This document shows positions 7,560 through 43,456 of a DNA stretch of 64,000 nucleotides, piece after piece (within the stretch, counting starts at the first letter, position 1; each line of letters opens with the position of its first letter). The stretch is from contig JAZDKJ010000006.1 in NCBI GenBank assembly GCA_043803105.1, positions 364,222 through 428,221 on the forward strand, read 5' to 3'. The notes beneath the pieces are model-generated. The model did not search any database. It was given only the letters and a program-made list of their open reading frames with translations, and was not told the origin of the DNA. This DNA comes from Candidatus Woesearchaeota archaeon. GTDB lineage: Archaea; Nanobdellota; Nanobdellia; Woesearchaeales; JAZDKJ01. Both the position numbers and the translations under genes were made by a program.

Positions 7560-7636
7560 AAGCTTTTTTCCTTAGGAAAAAACCTTGGAAAATATGTTTT
7601 TGCCAAGGCAAAAACGCTGCCTTTAAGGCAGCTAAA

Positions 7637-7679
7637 GTTGCGAGCTGACTTTTCAGCTCAGCTATTGAGCTACTCAGGG
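7637..7679 (-). ncRNA. Truncated degenerate copy of the tRNA-Tyr 5' end (nt 1-24), ending within and continued by a conserved 23-nt hairpin
   Basis: CCCTGAGTAGCTCAATAGCTGAGC compared with the genuine CCCCGAGTAGCTCAATGGCTAGAGC (the D-loop GG is reduced to AG). The hairpin GAGCTGAAAAGTCAGCTCGCAAC (7659-7637) starts at the copy's last GAGC. The same hairpin occurs at 29650-29672 and 41291-41313. Confidence 0.6.
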
Positions 7680-7707
7680 ATAATTCAATGAATAACAAAC
7701 AAGGGTC

Positions 7708-7717
7708 TTTTTATAAA
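7708..7717 (-). promoter_or_regulatory. TATA box (TTTATAAAAA) 28 nt upstream of the truncated tRNA-Tyr copy
   Basis: Read directly on the minus strand. No comparable TATA lies between the truncated copy and the full tRNA-Tyr. Confidence 0.5.
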
Positions 7718-10156: not shown

Positions 10157-12328
10157 CTAACTTACCTCTGGCGCAACAAACTGTGAATAATCGTTAACTG
10201 TGTAATCTACCTGTTTTGTCTTGCCGTCGCAGTTATCATCGACAGTGATCTTTCCGCTTAGCCTGCTGCCATCAATGACTGTCTCAGTGATGCTGTTTAC
10301 CTCAAGGTTCTGGTCTGAGAGGAAATCCACCATGCAGTAGAATTTTATTTTGCTGCCCCTTAGGCTGGTTGCTTTCCATCCAAAGTTCCCGTTGCCAATT
10401 ATCCAAGGTCCTTCGTAGTTGGAATGCGTCAAGGGATTGTTGTCAAAGTCCACTGTCACTGTGTTGTCTCCTTCTTTATAGGTTGAGGGCTTTATGACCA
10501 CGTTGCCTTTGGCCAGCATTCCCACCCGATAGTTTCCGCTTCCTATTATCATGCTCTTCATTGTTGGGTATAGGACAGTAGGGTTTGCAGACGCCCCGTT
10601 TATTGATATTGTTATCTCGTCTTTTGGCCTTGGCTGGTAGCGTGTTTCCTGCAACATTTCTTCAGGTGTTTTTCCGCAGCTGCTTCGTAAATATCCATTT
10701 GTCAGATAATAGTTCTCCAGGAATTTTCTTGCAAGCACAAGCTCCACTTCAATGCTGTAATTCTTCAGTTTCTCCAGTTTGTATTCGCTTTTTACAGCAT
10801 CAACAATCGTGCTGTAACCTGCCTTCTGCAACTTAAGCTGGAGCCCTGCGCATTTCGGCAGCTTTAAGGAGGCTCTGCCGCTGGAGGCTGTCTCTCCTGC
10901 ATCGCATTCGTTGATTGTGTTGTTGCATTGGAATCTGACACCAACTCCAGGCAATAATCCTGTTTCATTCGTTGTGACTACACTAGCCTGCGTGCTTACG
11001 TTGTTGCAGTCAAAGACACTTTTCATGGTCTCGCTTCCGAAAAATGCTGTCAGGTTCACTTCGCTATATGGATTCTGTCCAGTGCACTGCCTGTTCTGGT
11101 TTCCGCACAGGAAGAGTTGCATCGGGAAATAAAACGAGAAGCCCTGTTTTTCCTGCACCAAATTACCAATAATCTTGGCAGAATCGCTGTCTGTGATTTT
11201 TATCACCACAGGATGTGTCAAGAAGTACTTGAACCTGTAATCATAAATGCAGAAGCTTGGGAGGAATGGTATGCTTGTCTGCGATTCCTTGTCCGGGCTA
11301 ATCACGTTGCCGCTTGTGGGTTTGATGTCAAATTTGTTATCTGATTGTGCAGGGTAACTGAATTCTACGCTTATTGAGCTAAGATTTTCGAAATAATTCC
11401 TGATAAAGCTGTCATAAACTCCCTGGACTGAAGCGTCGTTTGAAATCACTCTTTCAAACTTTGTTCCGGCCATCTTTAGGTATGGAAAATTTTTTGAAAG
11501 TATGCCTTCAAGATTTTCCTTGACTTCATCTTTCGTCCATGTTACGTATTTGCAATCTGTGCTTGAGTCAGAGAAGCTGAACGGCGGAAGGTCTTTTGCT
11601 CCCTTTTCTGCCCCGGTATAGCTGTACAGAGAAATCAGTGACTTTGCGTGGTCTTCAAGATAAGTGTCTGCAAACTCTCTTGTGACTAATTCCATAGCTA
11701 TCTCATGGATCAGCGCCAGGTTTACATCCACCTGATAATTGTAGTTGTCCACTTCATACTGTTTTTCGTTCTGTGTGATCTGGATTGGCCAGTGAAGATC
11801 AATTGTTGCCTGTTTGCCGAACCTCACTGTGGTGTTTATTGTTCCAGTCTTGATAACATAACTTTTTTTTCTGAAGACCTCAAAGTCCGTGCATCTCGGC
11901 AGGTTTTCTGTGATGTATCTAGCTAGCTCATTTTGCATGTAATCTGTTGAAGGTACAGAAATCGAATCTTCGGTGATCCAGTAAGGGACCTTGTTCTTTC
12001 CTGTGGCGTCAATAACCTGAATCATGCTCCCAGTTTTAACCACAGTCCTATCGCCGCTTATGCCTGTTGTTTGTAGCTCGGTAGGAATGTATATGAACCC
12101 CGCCTGAAGCCCAAGGATTTCTATTCCTGAATTTGCATAATCACTTAGACACTGTTCCACATATGTCTTAACCTGTTGAGCAGGCTCTGCAAGTTGTAAT
12201 GCCCTTACCTGTTCGACCTGGATTGGCTGCTCTGTTGTTCTTGCCCAGCTAAAGTAGAAGATTGCCGCAGCTATCAGCATGATTATTCCGATGATTATGA
12301 ATATGGTTATCTGTCCTCTTTTTTCCAT
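10157..12328 (-). CDS. large extracellular protein with class III (type IV pilin-like) signal peptide
   Basis: 723-aa ORF. The N-terminus MEKRGQITIFIIIGIIMLIAAAIFYF matches the archaeal prepilin pattern: basic residues, G-Q cleavage site, then a hydrophobic helix. The rest is unrecognised. Confidence 0.6.
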   Translation of the reverse strand: MEKRGQITIFIIIGIIMLIAAAIFYFSWARTTEQPIQVEQVRALQLAEPAQQVKTYVEQCLSDYANSGIEILGLQAGFIYIPTELQTTGISGDRTVVKTGSMIQVIDATGKNKVPYWITEDSISVPSTDYMQNELARYITENLPRCTDFEVFRKKSYVIKTGTINTTVRFGKQATIDLHWPIQITQNEKQYEVDNYNYQVDVNLALIHEIAMELVTREFADTYLEDHAKSLISLYSYTGAEKGAKDLPPFSFSDSSTDCKYVTWTKDEVKENLEGILSKNFPYLKMAGTKFERVISNDASVQGVYDSFIRNYFENLSSISVEFSYPAQSDNKFDIKPTSGNVISPDKESQTSIPFLPSFCIYDYRFKYFLTHPVVIKITDSDSAKIIGNLVQEKQGFSFYFPMQLFLCGNQNRQCTGQNPYSEVNLTAFFGSETMKSVFDCNNVSTQASVVTTNETGLLPGVGVRFQCNNTINECDAGETASSGRASLKLPKCAGLQLKLQKAGYSTIVDAVKSEYKLEKLKNYSIEVELVLARKFLENYYLTNGYLRSSCGKTPEEMLQETRYQPRPKDEITISINGASANPTVLYPTMKSMIIGSGNYRVGMLAKGNVVIKPSTYKEGDNTVTVDFDNNPLTHSNYEGPWIIGNGNFGWKATSLRGSKIKFYCMVDFLSDQNLEVNSITETVIDGSRLSGKITVDDNCDGKTKQVDYTVNDYSQFVAPEVS

Positions 12329-29580: not shown

Positions 29581-29637
29581 TCACTGGTCGGCTCTGTACA
29601 ATAATCAAGGAGCAGTACACTTGACCTTACAATCATT

Positions 29638-29672
29638 GGGGCTGCGGGGGAGCTGCGAAGTCAGCTCGCACC
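29638..29672 (+). ncRNA. Truncated degenerate copy of the tRNA-Pro 5' end plus conserved 23-nt hairpin
   Basis: GGGGCTGCGGGGG compared with the genuine GGGGCTGTGGGGT (U8 replaced by C). The hairpin is GAGCTGCGAAGTCAGCTCGCACC (29650-29672). The leader ACAATCATT matches ACAATCAAT before the real tRNA. Confidence 0.6.
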
Positions 29673-29710
29673 TTCGTGGGACATAAAGTCCCCCTGACAT
29701 CACAATCAAT

Positions 29711-29827
29711 GGGGCTGTGGGGTAGCTTGGTCTAGCCTATCTGGTTTGGGGCAATGCAAAAAACCAGATGACCCCGGTTCGAAAGTTTTATAAAAGGCTG
29801 ATTAACTCGAAAATCCGGGCAGCCCCA
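29711..29827 (+). tRNA. tRNA-Pro: tRNA-Pro(UGG), 117 nt, two introns (12-nt anticodon loop, 30-nt T-loop)
   Basis: Hand parse: GGGGCTG TG GGGT AGCTTGGTCTA GCCT A TCTGG TTTGGG[12 nt] CCAGA TGAC CCCGG TTCGAAA[GTTTTATAAAAGGCTGATTAACTCGAAAAT] CCGGG CAGCCCC A. The mature length is 75 nt. Confidence 0.85.
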
Positions 29828-29905
29828 CTCATGTTCGTGGTTGGTCTTCCCAATGGGAAGACGCACCCTTTAGGGTGCCGATGCAGTCAACAGGCATTTC
29901 TGTTG

Positions 29906-29921
29906 ATCCGGGCCGCCCCCA
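29906..29921 (+). other. Degenerate duplicate of the tRNA-Pro 3' end
   Basis: ATCCGGGCCGCCCCCA compared with the genuine ATCCGGGCAGCCCCA (29813-29827). Preceded by three hairpins (29828-29905). Confidence 0.45.
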
Positions 29922-29977
29922 CTCAGTTTTGTTGGCTAAAAACATGGGAAAACGCTGCACAAAGGGCAATTCGCAAA

Positions 29978-39452: not shown

Positions 39453-39654
39453 TGGGGCTGCTGGGATTTCCATGCTTCTAGGACGGTCTTTTGGCATCAG
39501 CCAAAAGCCTTTTCCCAGGTTTTTGCATATTGCAAAAAGCTGTTTGGACCCAGATTAGGAGGTTTTCCGCTGAAAACCTTAGGTCAAATGCCCCGAACCT
39601 CCAGTGATAGTTTCTCGAAGAGTTTCTCTCTTCTCCAAGTTACACTACAGCCCC
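39453..39654 (-). tRNA. tRNA-Pro: tRNA-Pro(CGG), 202 nt, three introns (D-loop 25 nt, anticodon loop 28 nt, T-loop about 76 nt)
   Basis: GGGGCTG TA GTGT AACTTGG[AGAAGAGAGAAACTCTTCGAGAAAC]TA TCAC T GGAGG TTCGGG[28 nt] CCTCC TAAT CTGGG TCCAAAC[AGCTTTTTGC...GCATGGAAAT] CCCAG CAGCCCC A. Confidence 0.7.
39635..39654 (-). repeat. 20-nt perfect direct repeat, copy 1 (first 20 nt of tRNA-Pro(CGG))
   Basis: GGGGCTGTAGTGTAACTTGG, identical to 41164-41183. The flanking bases differ on both sides. Confidence 0.9.
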
Positions 39655-39855: not shown

Positions 39856-40989
39856 ATGGATAACAGAGCAAAATTTGAACTTATAACGAGAAATTTAGAA
39901 GAAGTACTAACACCTGCAGATTTAATGAAACTCATTGAAAATGATGAGCCTTTAAAGCATTATATTGGTTTTGAAATAAGTGGTAAGGTGCATCTTGGAA
40001 CTGGACTTATGTGTATGTCCAAAATTAAAGACTTCATGGATGCAGGTGCGGATGTTTCTGTGTTTCTTGCTGACTGGCATAGTTGGATTAATGATAAACT
40101 TGGTGGAGACAGAGAAGTTATCAAAAAAATTGCCGTCGGATATTTCAAAGAAGCGATGAAGGCTAGCCTTCTTTGTCTTGGTGGTAATCCTGAAAAAATA
40201 AGATTTGTACTTGGTACAGAACTTTATCACAATAATGACGATTATTGGGCAACCATGATTGATGTAAGTAAAAATACGACTCTAGGCAGGATGACTCGGA
40301 GCATTACAATCCTTGGAAGAAAAGAAGGGGAGGGAGTTGATTTTGCAAAATTGATCTATCCTGCAATGCAGGTTTCAGATATTTTTGTTCAGAAATTGAA
40401 CATACCTCATGCAGGAATTGATCAAAGGAAAGCGCAAGTTATTGCAAGAGAAGTTGCTTTAAAAATGAAAGTAAGTCAAATTACTGATAAAGAGGGTAAT
40501 AAAATTAAACCCGTTGCCCTGCATCATCATCTGTTACTAGGTCTTGGCAAACCCCCGGTATGGCCTGTTCCTCAAGATAAATTACAGGATTTATGGTCAT
40601 CAATGAAGATGAGCAAGTCCAAGCCGGACACTTGTGTTTTTGTTCACGATAGTCCTGATGAAATTAAAAGAAAGATTGCAAAGGCATTCTGCCCTGAAGG
40701 TGAAACTGTGTTCAATCCAGTACTTGATTGGGCTAAATATTTATTGTTCAGAGAGACGACTGATGAACTTATAGTAAAAAGGCCTGAAAAATTCGGTGGA
40801 ACTGTTATATATACAACTTACGAAAAACTTGAAAAAGATTTTGCAGACAAAAAAGTTCATCCAATGGACCTTAAAGATTCAGTTGCTGAAAGTTTAATTA
40901 AACTACTTGAACCTGCAAGAATCCATTTTGAAAAACCTGAAATCAAAAAGACGTTGGATCAGCTTAACAAGCTCATAACCACAAGGTGA
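39856..40989 (+). CDS. tyrS: tyrosyl-tRNA synthetase (archaeal type)
   Basis: 377-aa ORF, recalled as collinear with M. jannaschii TyrRS: IGFEISGKVHLGT, LADWHSWIN, IYPAMQVSD, KMSKS, RPEKFGG and HPMDLK. Markedly more A+T-rich than its neighbours. Confidence 0.9.
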   Translation: MDNRAKFELITRNLEEVLTPADLMKLIENDEPLKHYIGFEISGKVHLGTGLMCMSKIKDFMDAGADVSVFLADWHSWINDKLGGDREVIKKIAVGYFKEAMKASLLCLGGNPEKIRFVLGTELYHNNDDYWATMIDVSKNTTLGRMTRSITILGRKEGEGVDFAKLIYPAMQVSDIFVQKLNIPHAGIDQRKAQVIAREVALKMKVSQITDKEGNKIKPVALHHHLLLGLGKPPVWPVPQDKLQDLWSSMKMSKSKPDTCVFVHDSPDEIKRKIAKAFCPEGETVFNPVLDWAKYLLFRETTDELIVKRPEKFGGTVIYTTYEKLEKDFADKKVHPMDLKDSVAESLIKLLEPARIHFEKPEIKKTLDQLNKLITTR

Positions 40990-41074
40990 TTTTATTCCTT
41001 TTTGTATGTTTATTCTAGATAGTTAATATTAGAATACAAAATTTCAGGATTAGCCTAAAATGTTTTATGCTTCT

Positions 41075-41183
41075 TTTCGAATTCCGGTCGGACGCATTCT
41101 GGTTTCATCCTCAAGCGTAAGTGATAGTTGCTTCAGGCAACCGAGCGAACTGGTTGGCGCTGGCCAAGTTACACTACAGCCCC
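41075..41183 (-). pseudogene. Truncated tRNA: Pro-like body, anticodon GAG, no 3' acceptor strand nearby
   Basis: GGGGCTG TA GTGT AACTTGG[37-nt insert ending AAGCAAC]TA TCAC T TACGC TTGAGG[12 nt] GCGTC CGAC CGGAA TTCGAAA... No CAGCCCC follows before the tyrS stop. Confidence 0.5.
41164..41183 (-). repeat. 20-nt perfect direct repeat, copy 2
   Basis: GGGGCTGTAGTGTAACTTGG, identical to 39635-39654. Confidence 0.9.
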
Positions 41184-41290
41184 GTTGATTGTTATTGTTT
41201 CGCGAAGCTCACAAGAAACCTGATAGTTTCTTGGGAGTCCCAAAAAACTTCAAGTTTTTTGTGACGAAAGGCGACTGAAAGGAGTGTAAA

Positions 41291-41330
41291 GGTGCCAGCT
41301 GACTTCTCAGCTGAGTAGCACTACAGCCCC
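41291..41330 (-). ncRNA. Truncated tRNA 5' copy (GGGGCTGTAGTG...) plus conserved 23-nt hairpin
   Basis: GGGGCTGTAGTGCTACTCAGCTGAGAAGTCAGCTGGCACC. The hairpin CAGCTGAGAAGTCAGCTGGCACC (41313-41291) carries a compensatory C1/G18 change relative to the other two copies. Confidence 0.6.
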
Positions 41331-41358
41331 AATTACTCAAACCAATTCGGTCGATTGC

Positions 41359-41366
41359 TTAAAAAA
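41359..41366 (-). promoter_or_regulatory. TATA-like box (TTTTTTAA) 28 nt upstream of the truncated copy
   Basis: Read directly. The spacing is the same 28 nt seen at the tRNA-Tyr locus. Confidence 0.4.
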
Positions 41367-41374
41367 TTTGTGCT

Positions 41375-41920
41375 TTGCCAAGCTTTTTAAGGGTTTTAGA
41401 TACTCCGTCCTGCATGGAGAGGGCACCACAGCAAAAACCTAGCCGTGAGTTGTTGATAGAAAAATTCCTCCAGGACAACCAGTTTAATCTCGAAGATGTG
41501 ATATCCAAGGACGAGATTTTCCAAAGCGCGAATGACCTTGCTTCAGCTATATACAAGAAGAGACCATCATACATAACCTTCAAGGATTATAATTTAGGTA
41601 TAACAAGCAGGTTTCCACAGACACCAGAATTTGAGGTCATGATGCTTTACCAGGTCCACGAGACTGCTTTGAAGTTCAAGCAGCAAGGATACAACGAACT
41701 TAGCTGGAACCAGCTTAAATCAGCATACCTAAAAGTCCACTTACAATCAAGGCATGACGCTGCTGGACGCCATGCCAGGTACAACTCACATTTTCCAAAA
41801 GCCCCAAAAGAGTTTGTTAGAGGCAAACATCCTGTGCACAGCATGCTGCTTACCTTGGACAGCATGGCTGTAGATATACTCCTCCATTATGCCACTTTGC
41901 GAATATACAAGAAAAGATAG
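41375..41920 (+). CDS. hypothetical protein
   Basis: 181-aa ORF. The true start may be the ATG at 41414 (MERAPQQ). Confidence 0.45.
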   Translation: MPSFLRVLDTPSCMERAPQQKPSRELLIEKFLQDNQFNLEDVISKDEIFQSANDLASAIYKKRPSYITFKDYNLGITSRFPQTPEFEVMMLYQVHETALKFKQQGYNELSWNQLKSAYLKVHLQSRHDAAGRHARYNSHFPKAPKEFVRGKHPVHSMLLTLDSMAVDILLHYATLRIYKKR

Positions 41921-41926
41921 AAAATA

Positions 41927-42529
41927 TTGGTCTGGCAGAAAATATTAAATAGTTGCGTTTCAGGTTCATTGTTTATGGACAAGCTGGAACAGGCAGGTTT
42001 CTTCCAGGCAGCGCTTATCAATCTATTGCTTGGAAACTTTATACTTGGCGGGCTTCTGGCGTCGATTTTCTTTCTTTTCTTTGAAGCTATTATTGTGCAA
42101 TTTATTTGTATAGCATTAGTTGGCTTATACAGTGGTTGGCTGACAATCTCTGTGATGGCCGGCTTTGAAATGAACTCAAGCCAAAAAGTCCTTGCAGGAG
42201 CGCTTTGCCCTATTCCTGTTGTTTGCCTGTTATTTGTCGAGCAATTCATTTTCAGCAGGCTTGGAGCACAGCTTCAGATGCTTGGAGCCCCTGTGCAGAG
42301 CACTGCTGCATCAATTTCGAATATTTTTGGCCATCCCTCTCTGCAGGTCACCATTATCTTCATTTCTGTCTACTATCTTGCATTCAATTTCTTTGCGATA
42401 CGGGAGATTGACCGAGCAAAACAATTCAGTTCTTTAGGTTGGTACTCATTCGGCTTGATTTTGTTGACATTGATTGTTCTATTAGCAAGGTTCCTGGCTG
42501 CATCAGTCACCGGTGCCAAAGTGTCCTGA
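41927..42529 (+). CDS. polytopic membrane protein, hypothetical
   Basis: 200-aa ORF with about 5 TM helices. Confidence 0.5.
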   Translation: MVWQKILNSCVSGSLFMDKLEQAGFFQAALINLLLGNFILGGLLASIFFLFFEAIIVQFICIALVGLYSGWLTISVMAGFEMNSSQKVLAGALCPIPVVCLLFVEQFIFSRLGAQLQMLGAPVQSTAASISNIFGHPSLQVTIIFISVYYLAFNFFAIREIDRAKQFSSLGWYSFGLILLTLIVLLARFLAASVTGAKVS

Positions 42530-42569
42530 TTTGGCAACTTTTATATATTGAAGTTTGTGATAATGTGTT

Positions 42570-43121
42570 GTGCCAAGAAAAAAGAGGGTTGTTCAGCATA
42601 ATGTGCTTGAGTACCTATACATGATGATATTTATTGCCTCTGTTGCGCTGGTGGTATTTATCCTTTTTTCTGGAGGTCTTAGAGCAAAGTCAGAGGAGCT
42701 TCGCAGGCTTAAGGTGATTGATGATTTCAAGACCTCGCTTAACCTTGAGAGGCAGGCTTGCGGTTATAAGTGCGACACAGCCTGGTCTTCTGGCTGCGAA
42801 GAAGATTCTGTTGCCCAGTTCTGTTTAATTTCAGTAGAGCTCGATGTTGAGCACAATGGAAAGTTTGACTACAGTGAAAATATTATCCCGGGAACAGGCG
42901 TTTGCGAAGACAAGGTCTTTTGCTCCCAGCTTGTCAGTTGCGATTGTGTCCAAGGGATGAGAGAATGCATTGATTTCCTGTGCCATTACTGGAAGGAGAG
43001 AGACATGGACGGTTCCAAGGCATTGAACATGAACCTTGTTCCTGGCTCATGCGATTACCTTAACGAGCCTTTGCATTGGTACAATCAATTGAGAACCTCT
43101 GAAGGCTTGGCCTGCAGTTAA
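42570..43121 (+). CDS. membrane-anchored Cys-rich protein, hypothetical
   Basis: 183-aa ORF with an N-terminal TM helix followed by a Cys-rich ectodomain. Confidence 0.5.
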   Translation: MPRKKRVVQHNVLEYLYMMIFIASVALVVFILFSGGLRAKSEELRRLKVIDDFKTSLNLERQACGYKCDTAWSSGCEEDSVAQFCLISVELDVEHNGKFDYSENIIPGTGVCEDKVFCSQLVSCDCVQGMRECIDFLCHYWKERDMDGSKALNMNLVPGSCDYLNEPLHWYNQLRTSEGLACS

Positions 43122-43456
43122 CGCTTCTGTTCCCTTAAGAGCCGCACAGTGTCCCTTAGTGCTGCAGTAAGTTCGTCTTTTCCACTGGATTTATCGAACA
43201 CAACTGACTCTCTCATCTCTCTGATGATATCATTTCTTGCTGCCCTGATGGCATTTACTGCTTCTCCCTGCTGCCCTGTCTGCTGGAGTATGTTCGTAAC
43301 CTTCTCTTCAAAATCCTTCAGCGCCTTGAAGATGTAGCTGTGCTGGCTATGTATCAGCTGGTGAGTGCTATTTAGGTCAAGCTTGTCTATCTTGTGGTGC
43401 AATGCCTCTATGCTTCTAGAGAGGTTTGCGATTTGTTCCTCAACCGCTAATGGCAT
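43118..43456 (-). CDS. coiled-coil protein, hypothetical
   Basis: 112-aa ORF. Confidence 0.4.
   Translation of the reverse strand: MPLAVEEQIANLSRSIEALHHKIDKLDLNSTHQLIHSQHSYIFKALKDFEEKVTNILQQTGQQGEAVNAIRAARNDIIREMRESVVFDKSSGKDELTAALRDTVRLLREQKR

Follow-up and report, generated by a model that had tools for sequence, protein, structure and literature searches.

Positions 41184-41366 of the 64,000-nucleotide stretch of Candidatus Woesearchaeota DNA analysed here (the window) raise a simple question: why, on the minus strand, does a TATA-like box lead into the first nucleotides of a transfer RNA (tRNA) gene, then into a hairpin, and then into the same tRNA start a second time? The original prediction, made from the sequence alone, implied that this arrangement is a conserved leader or processing module linked to tRNA genes. 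Our analysis points to a different answer, namely that the locus is probably what remains of a small non-coding mobile element (hereafter element E) inserted in the D-loop of a Pro-type tRNA gene. Its parts, in the direction of reading, are the following.

41366-41359, minus strand: TATA-like box TTTTTTAA, 28 nt before the start of the tRNA stub
41330-41319, minus strand: stub 12-mer GGGGCTGTAGTG, an exact match to tRNA positions 1-12
41330-41314, minus strand: whole stub (X'), degenerate past the 12-mer to about tRNA position 17 and ending in the D-loop, where the element begins
41313-41296, minus strand: hairpin CAGCTGAGAAGTCAGCTG, 6 bp with a 6-nt loop (CAGCUG AGAAGU CAGCUG)
41295-41289, minus strand: GCACCTT (GCACCUU in RNA), directly 3' of the hairpin and closing the invariant head 41313-41289
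41288-41184, minus strand: variable body and tail of the element, 105 nt, structured (from the fold, the coordinates and a subfamily comparison)
41284-41270, minus strand: CTCCTTTCAGTCGCC, in common with an element in locus L106 (subfamily comparison)
41264-41209, minus strand: long imperfect hairpin, including a run of six T (T6, 41247-41242)
41260-41242, minus strand: AAAAAACTTGAAGTTTTTT hairpin, read from the sequence
41219-41197, minus strand: GTTTC...GAAAC stem, read from the sequence
41193-41184, minus strand: tail end AACAATCAAC, abutting the second 12-mer copy
41183-41172, minus strand: second copy of GGGGCTGTAGTG, start of the putatively regenerated tRNA copy (X)
41183-41090, minus strand: copy X and the remaining gene, Pro-type, with the 3' exon missing

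The TATA-like box at 41359-41366, its 28-nt distance, the 12-mer, the hairpin, the stems of the spacer and the AACAATCAAC leader had all been predicted, and each was recovered on the minus strand exactly where it had been placed.

This pattern is not a product of chance. Three exact occurrences of the stub 12-mer were found in the window (41330-41319, 41183-41172 and 39654-39643), against about 0.008 expected in 128 kb by our own estimate, and the identity of the three supports the earlier proposal that the stub is a copy of a tRNA 5' end. The stub is repeated over 17 nt in the second copy, 147 nt away, with 88% identity. The hairpin pattern matched the window three times, against 0.33 matches expected and with none of 100 shuffles reaching three, and a covariance model built from 47 family members retrieved exactly three sites (40.7-44.1 bits; next best, 8.5 bits), so that the locus is indeed a third copy of the module, as had been claimed. 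Its head (41289-41313) matched the model at 44.0 bits (E 3e-9), the element measures about 130 nt (41313-41184), and the 147-nt stretch folds at -56.1 kcal/mol (z = -6.96). None of the 4227 Rfam models describes the module: positions 40500-42000 gave nothing meaningful at E <= 10, and the whole window gave nothing meaningful for it at E <= 1, tRNA-Tyr being the only match above its gathering score.

A scan for the hairpin pattern in one genome per species, plus metagenomes, yielded 95 genome loci and 33 metagenome loci (cited here by their L numbers). About 60 of the matching loci belong to Woesearchaeota, Nanoarchaeota or similarly labelled metagenome-assembled genomes (MAGs) and share a conserved context, while the bacterial matches lie in unrelated sequence lacking the conserved GCACC context. 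Judged from these sequences, element E is a small non-coding family of 60-190 nt, widespread in Woesearchaeota, with an invariant head (a 6-7-bp hairpin with the loop NNAAGU, then GCACCUU), one or more variable hairpins and a ragged A/T-rich tail; in the subfamily comparison, the GCACC(TT) of archaeal copies was followed by a second hairpin of several kinds. The outer pair of the head hairpin, in which a compensatory C1/G18 change had been predicted, does covary: it is C-G in 32 of the 47 copies, G-C in 11, A-U in three and U-A in one, and is unpaired in none. Copies that escape the pattern carry compensated pairs (GGCUG/CAGCC in L042, GCACUG/CAGUGC in L014), one to three per variant copy. Because the outer pair covaries and the variants show compensated pairs, the hairpin structure is under selection, either as RNA or as single-stranded DNA.

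What ties the family to the duplicated tRNA start is the arrangement of its flanks. At least 24 independent loci, the three window copies among them, have the same order (class A): a stub X', the hairpin, GCACC, further hairpins and the ragged tail, and finally X together with the intact gene. Over 11-60 nt, X' and X repeat each other directly, X' being a dead stub on the hairpin side, and when the 70 nt upstream of each hairpin were compared, the repeat partner always lay 40-215 nt downstream of the hairpin. The intact gene was on the tail side in every class A locus and never on the hairpin side. Where the junction falls in the D-loop (the three window copies, L033, L039, L043 and L116), the tRNA is sense to the element and its 5' end is duplicated (positions 1 to ~18); where it falls in the T-loop or more 3' (L032, L047, L065, L068, L085, L086, L097-L100, L103, L106, L107, L112 and L122), the tRNA is antisense and its 3' end is duplicated (positions ~59-76 plus a few nt, often with a T-run). 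Independent tRNA calls back the sense/5' arrangement in L043, L033, L039 and the window tRNA-Tyr, and the antisense/3' arrangement in L065 (Leu), L100 (Ser), L103, L107 (His) and L032. The repeats usually stop 0-4 nt past the mature tRNA end, exceptions lying at 9, 22 and 30 nt, and stubs are 88-90% identical to the intact copy. Copies outside tRNA genes, at protein gene ends and in intergenic DNA, are flanked by duplications too (L030, L004, L042, L006 and L013). In the family loci no kilobase-sized element was found between stub and intact copy, and the element tails gave no systematic signal of target sequence carried over.

At seven loci (class B), element E is instead the 5' part of a genuine intron, always in sense orientation, in the T-loop (L078, L113, L121/L123, L125 and L127) or in the D-loop (L076 and L102). 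In-silico deletion of the E segment restored ARAGORN tRNA calls in L078, L113, L125 and L127, and L127 has a canonical bulge-helix-bulge motif with flanking helices of 5 bp each, the inner helix of which uses the 5' strand of the hairpin. The stretch 41184-41330 does not interrupt a mature tRNA in this manner, a complete 5' end following the element, and the scan of the three window loci gave no canonical motif (3-nt bulges, 4-bp helix), its relaxed candidates being weak. A third context (class C) has the head next to the 5' end of a tRNA, in antisense orientation, at L060, L105 and L110. Also in this class, in the groundwater Woesearchaeota MAG JACQXV01, the head lies inside a repeat of ~240 nt with terminal inverted repeats, present in ~20 copies and bounded by GTATTTGTTTAGC...GCTAAACAAATAC (L001, L007, L009, L016, L038, L041, L052, L066, L069, L073 and others); many contigs of this MAG end within the repeat and are too fragmentary for its target duplications to be assessed.

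The family also behaves as mobile DNA would. Near-identical cores (...GCACCTTCGTGGGTTTCCTCGCTTCGCTCGTCAAGCCCACTTA) were found in unrelated targets, with unrelated repeats and tails: in a tRNA-Leu gene (L068), in another tRNA gene (L086) and at the 3' ends of protein genes (L030 and L004). In L033 and L106 a single tRNA site holds different elements in tandem, and different subfamilies occupy the same tRNA-Leu locus, as judged by the neighbouring gene, in L065, L068, L097, L106 and L122. In two relatives, L135 and L137 (aRF1 77% and 76% identical), the orthologous locus with aRF1, tRNA-Pro(UGG) and L37Ae carries neither stub nor element: GGGGCTGTGGGGTAGC... begins 23-29 nt after the TATA box, the L37Ae start codon comes 6-20 nt past the tRNA 3' end with no 3' insert and no second copy of that end, and tRNA-Pro(UGG) and both of its intron positions are conserved with the window. 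At this sister locus the outcome is the one that the original prediction had itself named as refuting: fragment and hairpin missing at orthologous loci whose tRNA is unchanged. Since these two relatives hold the locus without stub and element, the sister copy at 29638-29710 is, on this comparison, a lineage-specific insertion. The 23-29 nt from TATA to +1 at the unoccupied promoters also bear out the idea that the distance at 41184-41366 is promoter-like; it had further been said to be identical to that of the tRNA-Tyr locus, where the distance to the tRNA +1 turned out to be 29-30 nt and not exactly 28. In L136 (positions 1-855; aRF1 78% identical), the tRNA-Pro/L37Ae neighbourhood of aRF1 has been replaced, and on the replaced side, ~1.1 kb upstream of aRF1, there is a gene for a DDE transposase (DUF772/DDE_Tnp_1_6).

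These observations suggest a polar mode of insertion. The hairpin end would join inside the target, most often in the D-loop or T-loop of a tRNA gene; the target segment on the hairpin side would be duplicated over 11-60 nt, rebuilding a complete gene end next to the tail; and the tail end would be joined untidily. The tails of same-core copies are unrelated and 4-100 nt long. In this scheme the insertion itself would make the duplication (staggered or target-primed, one-ended), which is favoured over a copy brought by the element as an attachment (att) site because the same core occurs with different repeats and intergenic copies are flanked as well. Selection would retain only those insertions whose duplication passes the nearest gene end, and such selection for an intact tRNA would explain both the strict orientation rule and the fact that repeats end just past the mature tRNA end. 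Splicing would offer the other route to survival of the gene, a sense element with pairable ends becoming a bulge-helix-bulge intron. At 41184-41366 the stub (41330-41314) would have kept the original TATA box, with E occupying 41313-41184; TTTTTTAA probably served the disrupted tRNA gene as its original promoter, and would now drive stub and element.

Several points weigh against insertion of a mobile element. None of the 49 window open reading frames (ORFs) encodes a transposase, integrase or reverse transcriptase, and we know of no described prokaryotic transposition mechanism that gives variable target duplications of 11-60 nt. An empty site for 41184-41366 itself was not obtained: TyrRS homologues are at most 72% identical, with synteny lost in the nearest relatives, and the neighbouring ORF has no homologue, so that none could be had from that side. 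Directly before the complete copy stands ACAATCAAY, a motif that recalls the leader of the tRNA-Pro(UGG) paralogue and not the local one, and a purely local duplication would not predict a leader of the UGG type there. The comparison of folds between strands was contradictory, the sense strand folding better at 41184-41366 and the antisense strand in 40 of 57 family sequences, which are not independent of one another.

The tRNA copy downstream of the element tells how this insertion may have ended. The predicted "next GGGGCTG start" is present in the sequence, but the intact tRNA expected from it is not, its 3' exon being absent. In the copy (41183-41090), a D-loop intron is placed as it is in tRNA-Pro(CGG) at 39654, the anticodon loop reads UUGAGGA (GAG in place of the expected GGG), and a deviant T arm leads into the first part of a T-loop intron similar to the one in tRNA-Pro(UGG). 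Further downstream, up to the TyrRS stop codon at 40989, there is no T-stem or acceptor 3' strand, and the window holds no spare ...CAGCCCCA partner elsewhere. ARAGORN called no tRNA in the copy after in-silico deletion of its D-loop intron, the same procedure recovering tRNA-Pro at 29711-29827, and Rfam gave no tRNA match even at E <= 10. Because the 3' exon is missing, the copy is probably a 3'-truncated pseudogene of a tRNA-Pro(GGG), with the 5' part of a split tRNA as the less likely alternative. The tail has no TATA box at about -30, unlike the tail of the 7560-7717 copy, and expression of the rebuilt tRNA copy would have required transcripts that read through a structured leader of ~150 nt with a T6 run; the copy would then have decayed. 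From general knowledge of archaeal termination, the T6 run (41247-41242) is expected to hinder read-through; a tail without TATA box, together with this run, would fit the decay of the downstream copy.

A serious rival, unlikely in our judgement, is that the copies are att-type miniature integrative elements, which would carry a tRNA gene end as attP and enter by site-specific or homologous recombination, with the crossover in the D- or T-loop and the hairpin as a recombinase-binding site. The repeat lengths are typical of att identity blocks, running from a stem-loop to just beyond the gene end, yet all repeat partners lie within 215 nt and no kilobase-sized or integrase-encoding element was found. 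Different elements do occur in tandem at one tRNA (L033, L106), and protein gene 3' ends are restored too (L030, L004), but one core is accompanied by unrelated repeats and tails, whereas an attP should be fixed. Arbitrary intergenic copies (L006, L013 and L042) are also flanked by duplications, and entry into a new essential target would still need a simultaneous duplication. On its side are also the ACAATCAAY motif (41193-41184) before the complete copy, which matches the leader of another Pro gene, and two precedents: a 1.9-kb insertion in Caldiarchaeum, by which positions 1-27 of tRNA-Thr are carried in and a 5' fragment stays behind (PMC3293823), and a 44-bp repeat that flanks PYG1 (PMC9897764).

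Quite improbable is an independent small RNA, in which the TATA-like box would drive a transcript of ~85 nt (tRNA 5' tag, head hairpin and next hairpin) ending at the T6 run 41247-41242 and acting in trans, for instance as a guide or decoy. In its favour are a promoter-like box at the right distance, T-runs after the hairpins of two window copies out of three, strong conservation of the head and a highly structured region. Such an RNA, conceivable for sense copies, would leave the antisense majority unexplained: most family members are antisense to the tRNA and have no upstream promoter. Moreover, the stubs decay (88-90% identity), no Rfam family matches, and the module is absent from the orthologous loci L135 and L137.

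Remoter still is a role for the stub as a true first exon or as part of a split tRNA, with element and second copy spliced out or a 3' piece trans-spliced. The downstream copy does lack a 3' exon, and the organism has D-loop and T-loop introns that are presumably spliced, but stub and copy are identical, not complementary, the stub duplicating sequence found 147 nt downstream, and the truncated copy has no partner within the window. A relaxed scan found one in-register candidate, with cuts after ...GGGGCUGUAG in both copies and a 147-nt "intron", but its bulges are of 2 nt and its flanking helices of 2 and 3 bp only; no canonical bulge-helix-bulge joins stub to second copy at the three loci, whereas the same scan finds one in L127. 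Moreover, conserved tRNA positions are substituted in stubs (G18 to A at 7663). Just as improbable is the conserved 5' leader or processing module implied by the original prediction, needed by this organism's tRNA genes: three tRNA loci in the window carry it downstream of TATA-like boxes, but stub and hairpin are absent from the orthologous tRNA-Pro(UGG) loci with the tRNA unchanged, tRNA-Pro(CGG) at 39654 lacks it, and the same hairpin occurs antisense at tRNA 3' ends, in introns, at protein gene ends and in the ~20-copy repeat, which does not suit a gene-specific leader.

Insertion of a mobile element, the reading preferred here, can be set beside several known systems. In Caldiarchaeum subterraneum, an insert of 1,868 bp with a putative recombinase disrupts one tRNA gene and supplies positions 1-27 (Sugahara et al. 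2012, PMC3293823). The likeness is close, a tRNA 5' fragment with the old upstream region being followed by the insert and then by the complete tRNA, and that study ties the disruption event to the gain of a non-canonical intron (PMC3293823). The inserts described here differ in being of 60-190 nt and non-coding, in using many tRNA genes and some protein genes, and in that one core occurs beside unrelated repeats. Partial tRNA genes at att borders, in the part of the PMC9897764 account that draws on Williams 2002 and Reiter 1989, share with the family direct repeats of a tRNA end (11-60 nt here), one of them in an intact tRNA, a junction at a stem-loop, and tandem arrays. The integrated viruses, plasmids and islands concerned are of 9-120 kb, with an integrase and a fixed attP (PMC9897764), whereas here there is no integrase among the 49 window ORFs, the partners are 40-215 nt apart and the repeats are not fixed for a given core. 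The direct repeats of a tRNA end, one of them in a complete tRNA, that mark att sites are found in the family, with the limit that at 41184-41366 the "complete" copy is 3'-truncated.

Non-canonical introns of archaeal tRNAs were reportedly described by Fujishima et al. in 2010, who are said to have proposed intron transposition in Thermoproteales. Like these introns, element E places related sequences at different positions and in different tRNAs, uses the D-loop and the T-loop (59/60) and forms a bulge-helix-bulge in its intron form; unlike them, it also occurs outside tRNAs, flanked by duplicated gene ends, and the 41184-41366 copy is not an intron. To our knowledge, a form outside the tRNA with duplicated gene ends is undescribed for intron families. 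With miniature inverted-repeat transposable elements, element E shares being short, non-coding, multi-copy and structured, and would likewise rely on an enzyme encoded elsewhere; it differs in that its duplication-flanked copies lack terminal inverted repeats, which only the composite repeat of JACQXV01 has, and in its long variable duplication and ragged tail. One precise end, one ragged end and variable target duplications recall the target-primed retroposition of eukaryotes, of the kind seen in short and long interspersed nuclear elements (SINE/LINE-like), as an analogy of pattern only, no reverse transcriptase being linked to E (none is in the window). We know of no such SINE/LINE-like system in archaea. 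Hairpin elements derived from IS200/IS605 have sub-terminal hairpins at both ends and no target duplication, whereas E has dissimilar ends and duplications.

The disruption of a tRNA gene by a mobile element is thus read as a known kind of event, of which the hairpin-element family is a new variant and the copy at 41184-41366 a decayed example. More tentatively, and with somewhat more doubt than confidence, we suggest that the hairpin-GCACC elements are an active mobile DNA family of Woesearchaeota with a mechanism new for prokaryotes (polar, one-ended, with long variable duplication, possibly target-primed), and that this one family creates bulge-helix-bulge introns where it can be spliced and fragmented or duplicated tRNA ends where it cannot. 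So far, arguments on where the non-canonical introns, fragments and split forms of archaeal tRNA genes come from have mostly relied on static patterns. Here a single family was observed in three states, as an insertion rescued by duplication, as a D- or T-loop intron that is presumably spliced, and as absence at orthologous empty sites, which makes a mobile-element origin of such introns directly testable; the suggested reading, if true, would show archaeal tRNA introns and tRNA gene fragments coming into being in the present day. The stubs shift promoters ~150 nt away from the tRNAs and may drive pseudogene formation, as at 41184-41366. Stubs and multi-intron tRNAs defeat the standard tRNA finders, so that tRNA sets of DPANN archaea are probably mis-annotated.

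A number of other candidates were considered. The conserved cores of hammerhead, twister and pistol ribozymes, C/D boxes and K-turns are absent, and Rfam gave nothing for them; for the repeats of diversity-generating retroelements, the differences are not adenine-specific; CRISPR-like repeats were rejected on anatomy; and reverse-transcribed copies of mature tRNAs do not fit, there being no CCA and the duplications including 3' trailers. A search of viral contigs gave one irrelevant match and no sign of the element as a viral att region. The hairpin sequence was not found in a text search covering 8 million papers, and the literature on tRNA introns, DPANN and mobile elements yielded only general precedents.

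The other family members and associated tRNA genes in the window are as follows.

7560-7717, minus strand: sister copy with TATA 7717-7708, tRNA-Tyr stub 7679-7659, hairpin 7659-7642 and body to 7560
7559-7433, minus strand: intact tRNA-Tyr after this copy (Rfam call)
29628-29710, plus strand: sister copy with tRNA-Pro(UGG) stub and 9-nt leader 29628-29650, hairpin 29650-29667 and body to 29700; the intact tRNA-Pro(UGG) begins at 29711
29832-29925, minus strand: divergent family member, antisense, at the 3' end of tRNA-Pro(UGG)

In the tRNA-Tyr stub, the substitution at 7663 changes the conserved G18 to A. The tail of the same copy includes ATATTTTC, 28 nt upstream of the tRNA-Tyr +1, which could be a replacement promoter for this gene. 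Runs of 5-6 T follow hairpins at 7578-7614 and 41242-41247 (minus strand), between the displaced promoters and the tRNA copies. The divergent member has the hairpin CAACAG AAAUGC CUGUUG (29905-29888) with two compensated pairs, followed by GGCACC, and is flanked by two copies of the tRNA 3' end, ATCCGGGC(A/C)GCCCC(C)ACTCA, so that tRNA-Pro(UGG) is bracketed on both sides by elements. The motif ACAATCA(A/T)Y lies directly 5' of tRNA starts or stubs at 29629-29637, 29702-29710, 41184-41193 and L134:1-40, and was also seen at the tail end of an element in L106 (about 905-915); it may mark the right end of one element subfamily, or else belong to tRNA-Pro as its native leader.

ARAGORN called no tRNA in the window, because all of them carry introns, and Rfam called one (tRNA-Tyr). 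Both missed tRNA-Pro(CGG) at 39453-39654 (minus strand), which has three introns (D-loop, 37/38 and T-loop) and no hairpin module. The window and L135 (L135:1790-1900) share a conserved T-loop intron in tRNA-Pro(UGG); in L137 (1700-1880) it is replaced by one resembling the T-loop intron of the window tRNA-Pro(CGG) (39470-39560), CAGCTTTTT...AAAAACCTGGGAAAAGG, a difference that by its sequence amounts to intron turnover at a single position.

The window as a whole is archaeal core chromosome, with genes for RNA polymerase subunits, aRF1, L37Ae, aIF5B, TyrRS and purine biosynthesis; TyrRS and aRF1 each match a protein of a Candidatus Woesearchaeota MAG at 100% identity. Next to the tRNA stub, 41375-43456 holds four consecutive ORFs without a Pfam family, and for the first of them, 41375-41920, a search of 5.8 billion proteins returned no homologue other than itself. 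The four ORFs may form a lineage-specific block at the border of the stub. At 11905-11968 (plus strand), a C/D-box model (SNORD29) matched below threshold (31.4 bits, E 0.031, gathering score 48), which may reflect an archaeal C/D small RNA or chance.

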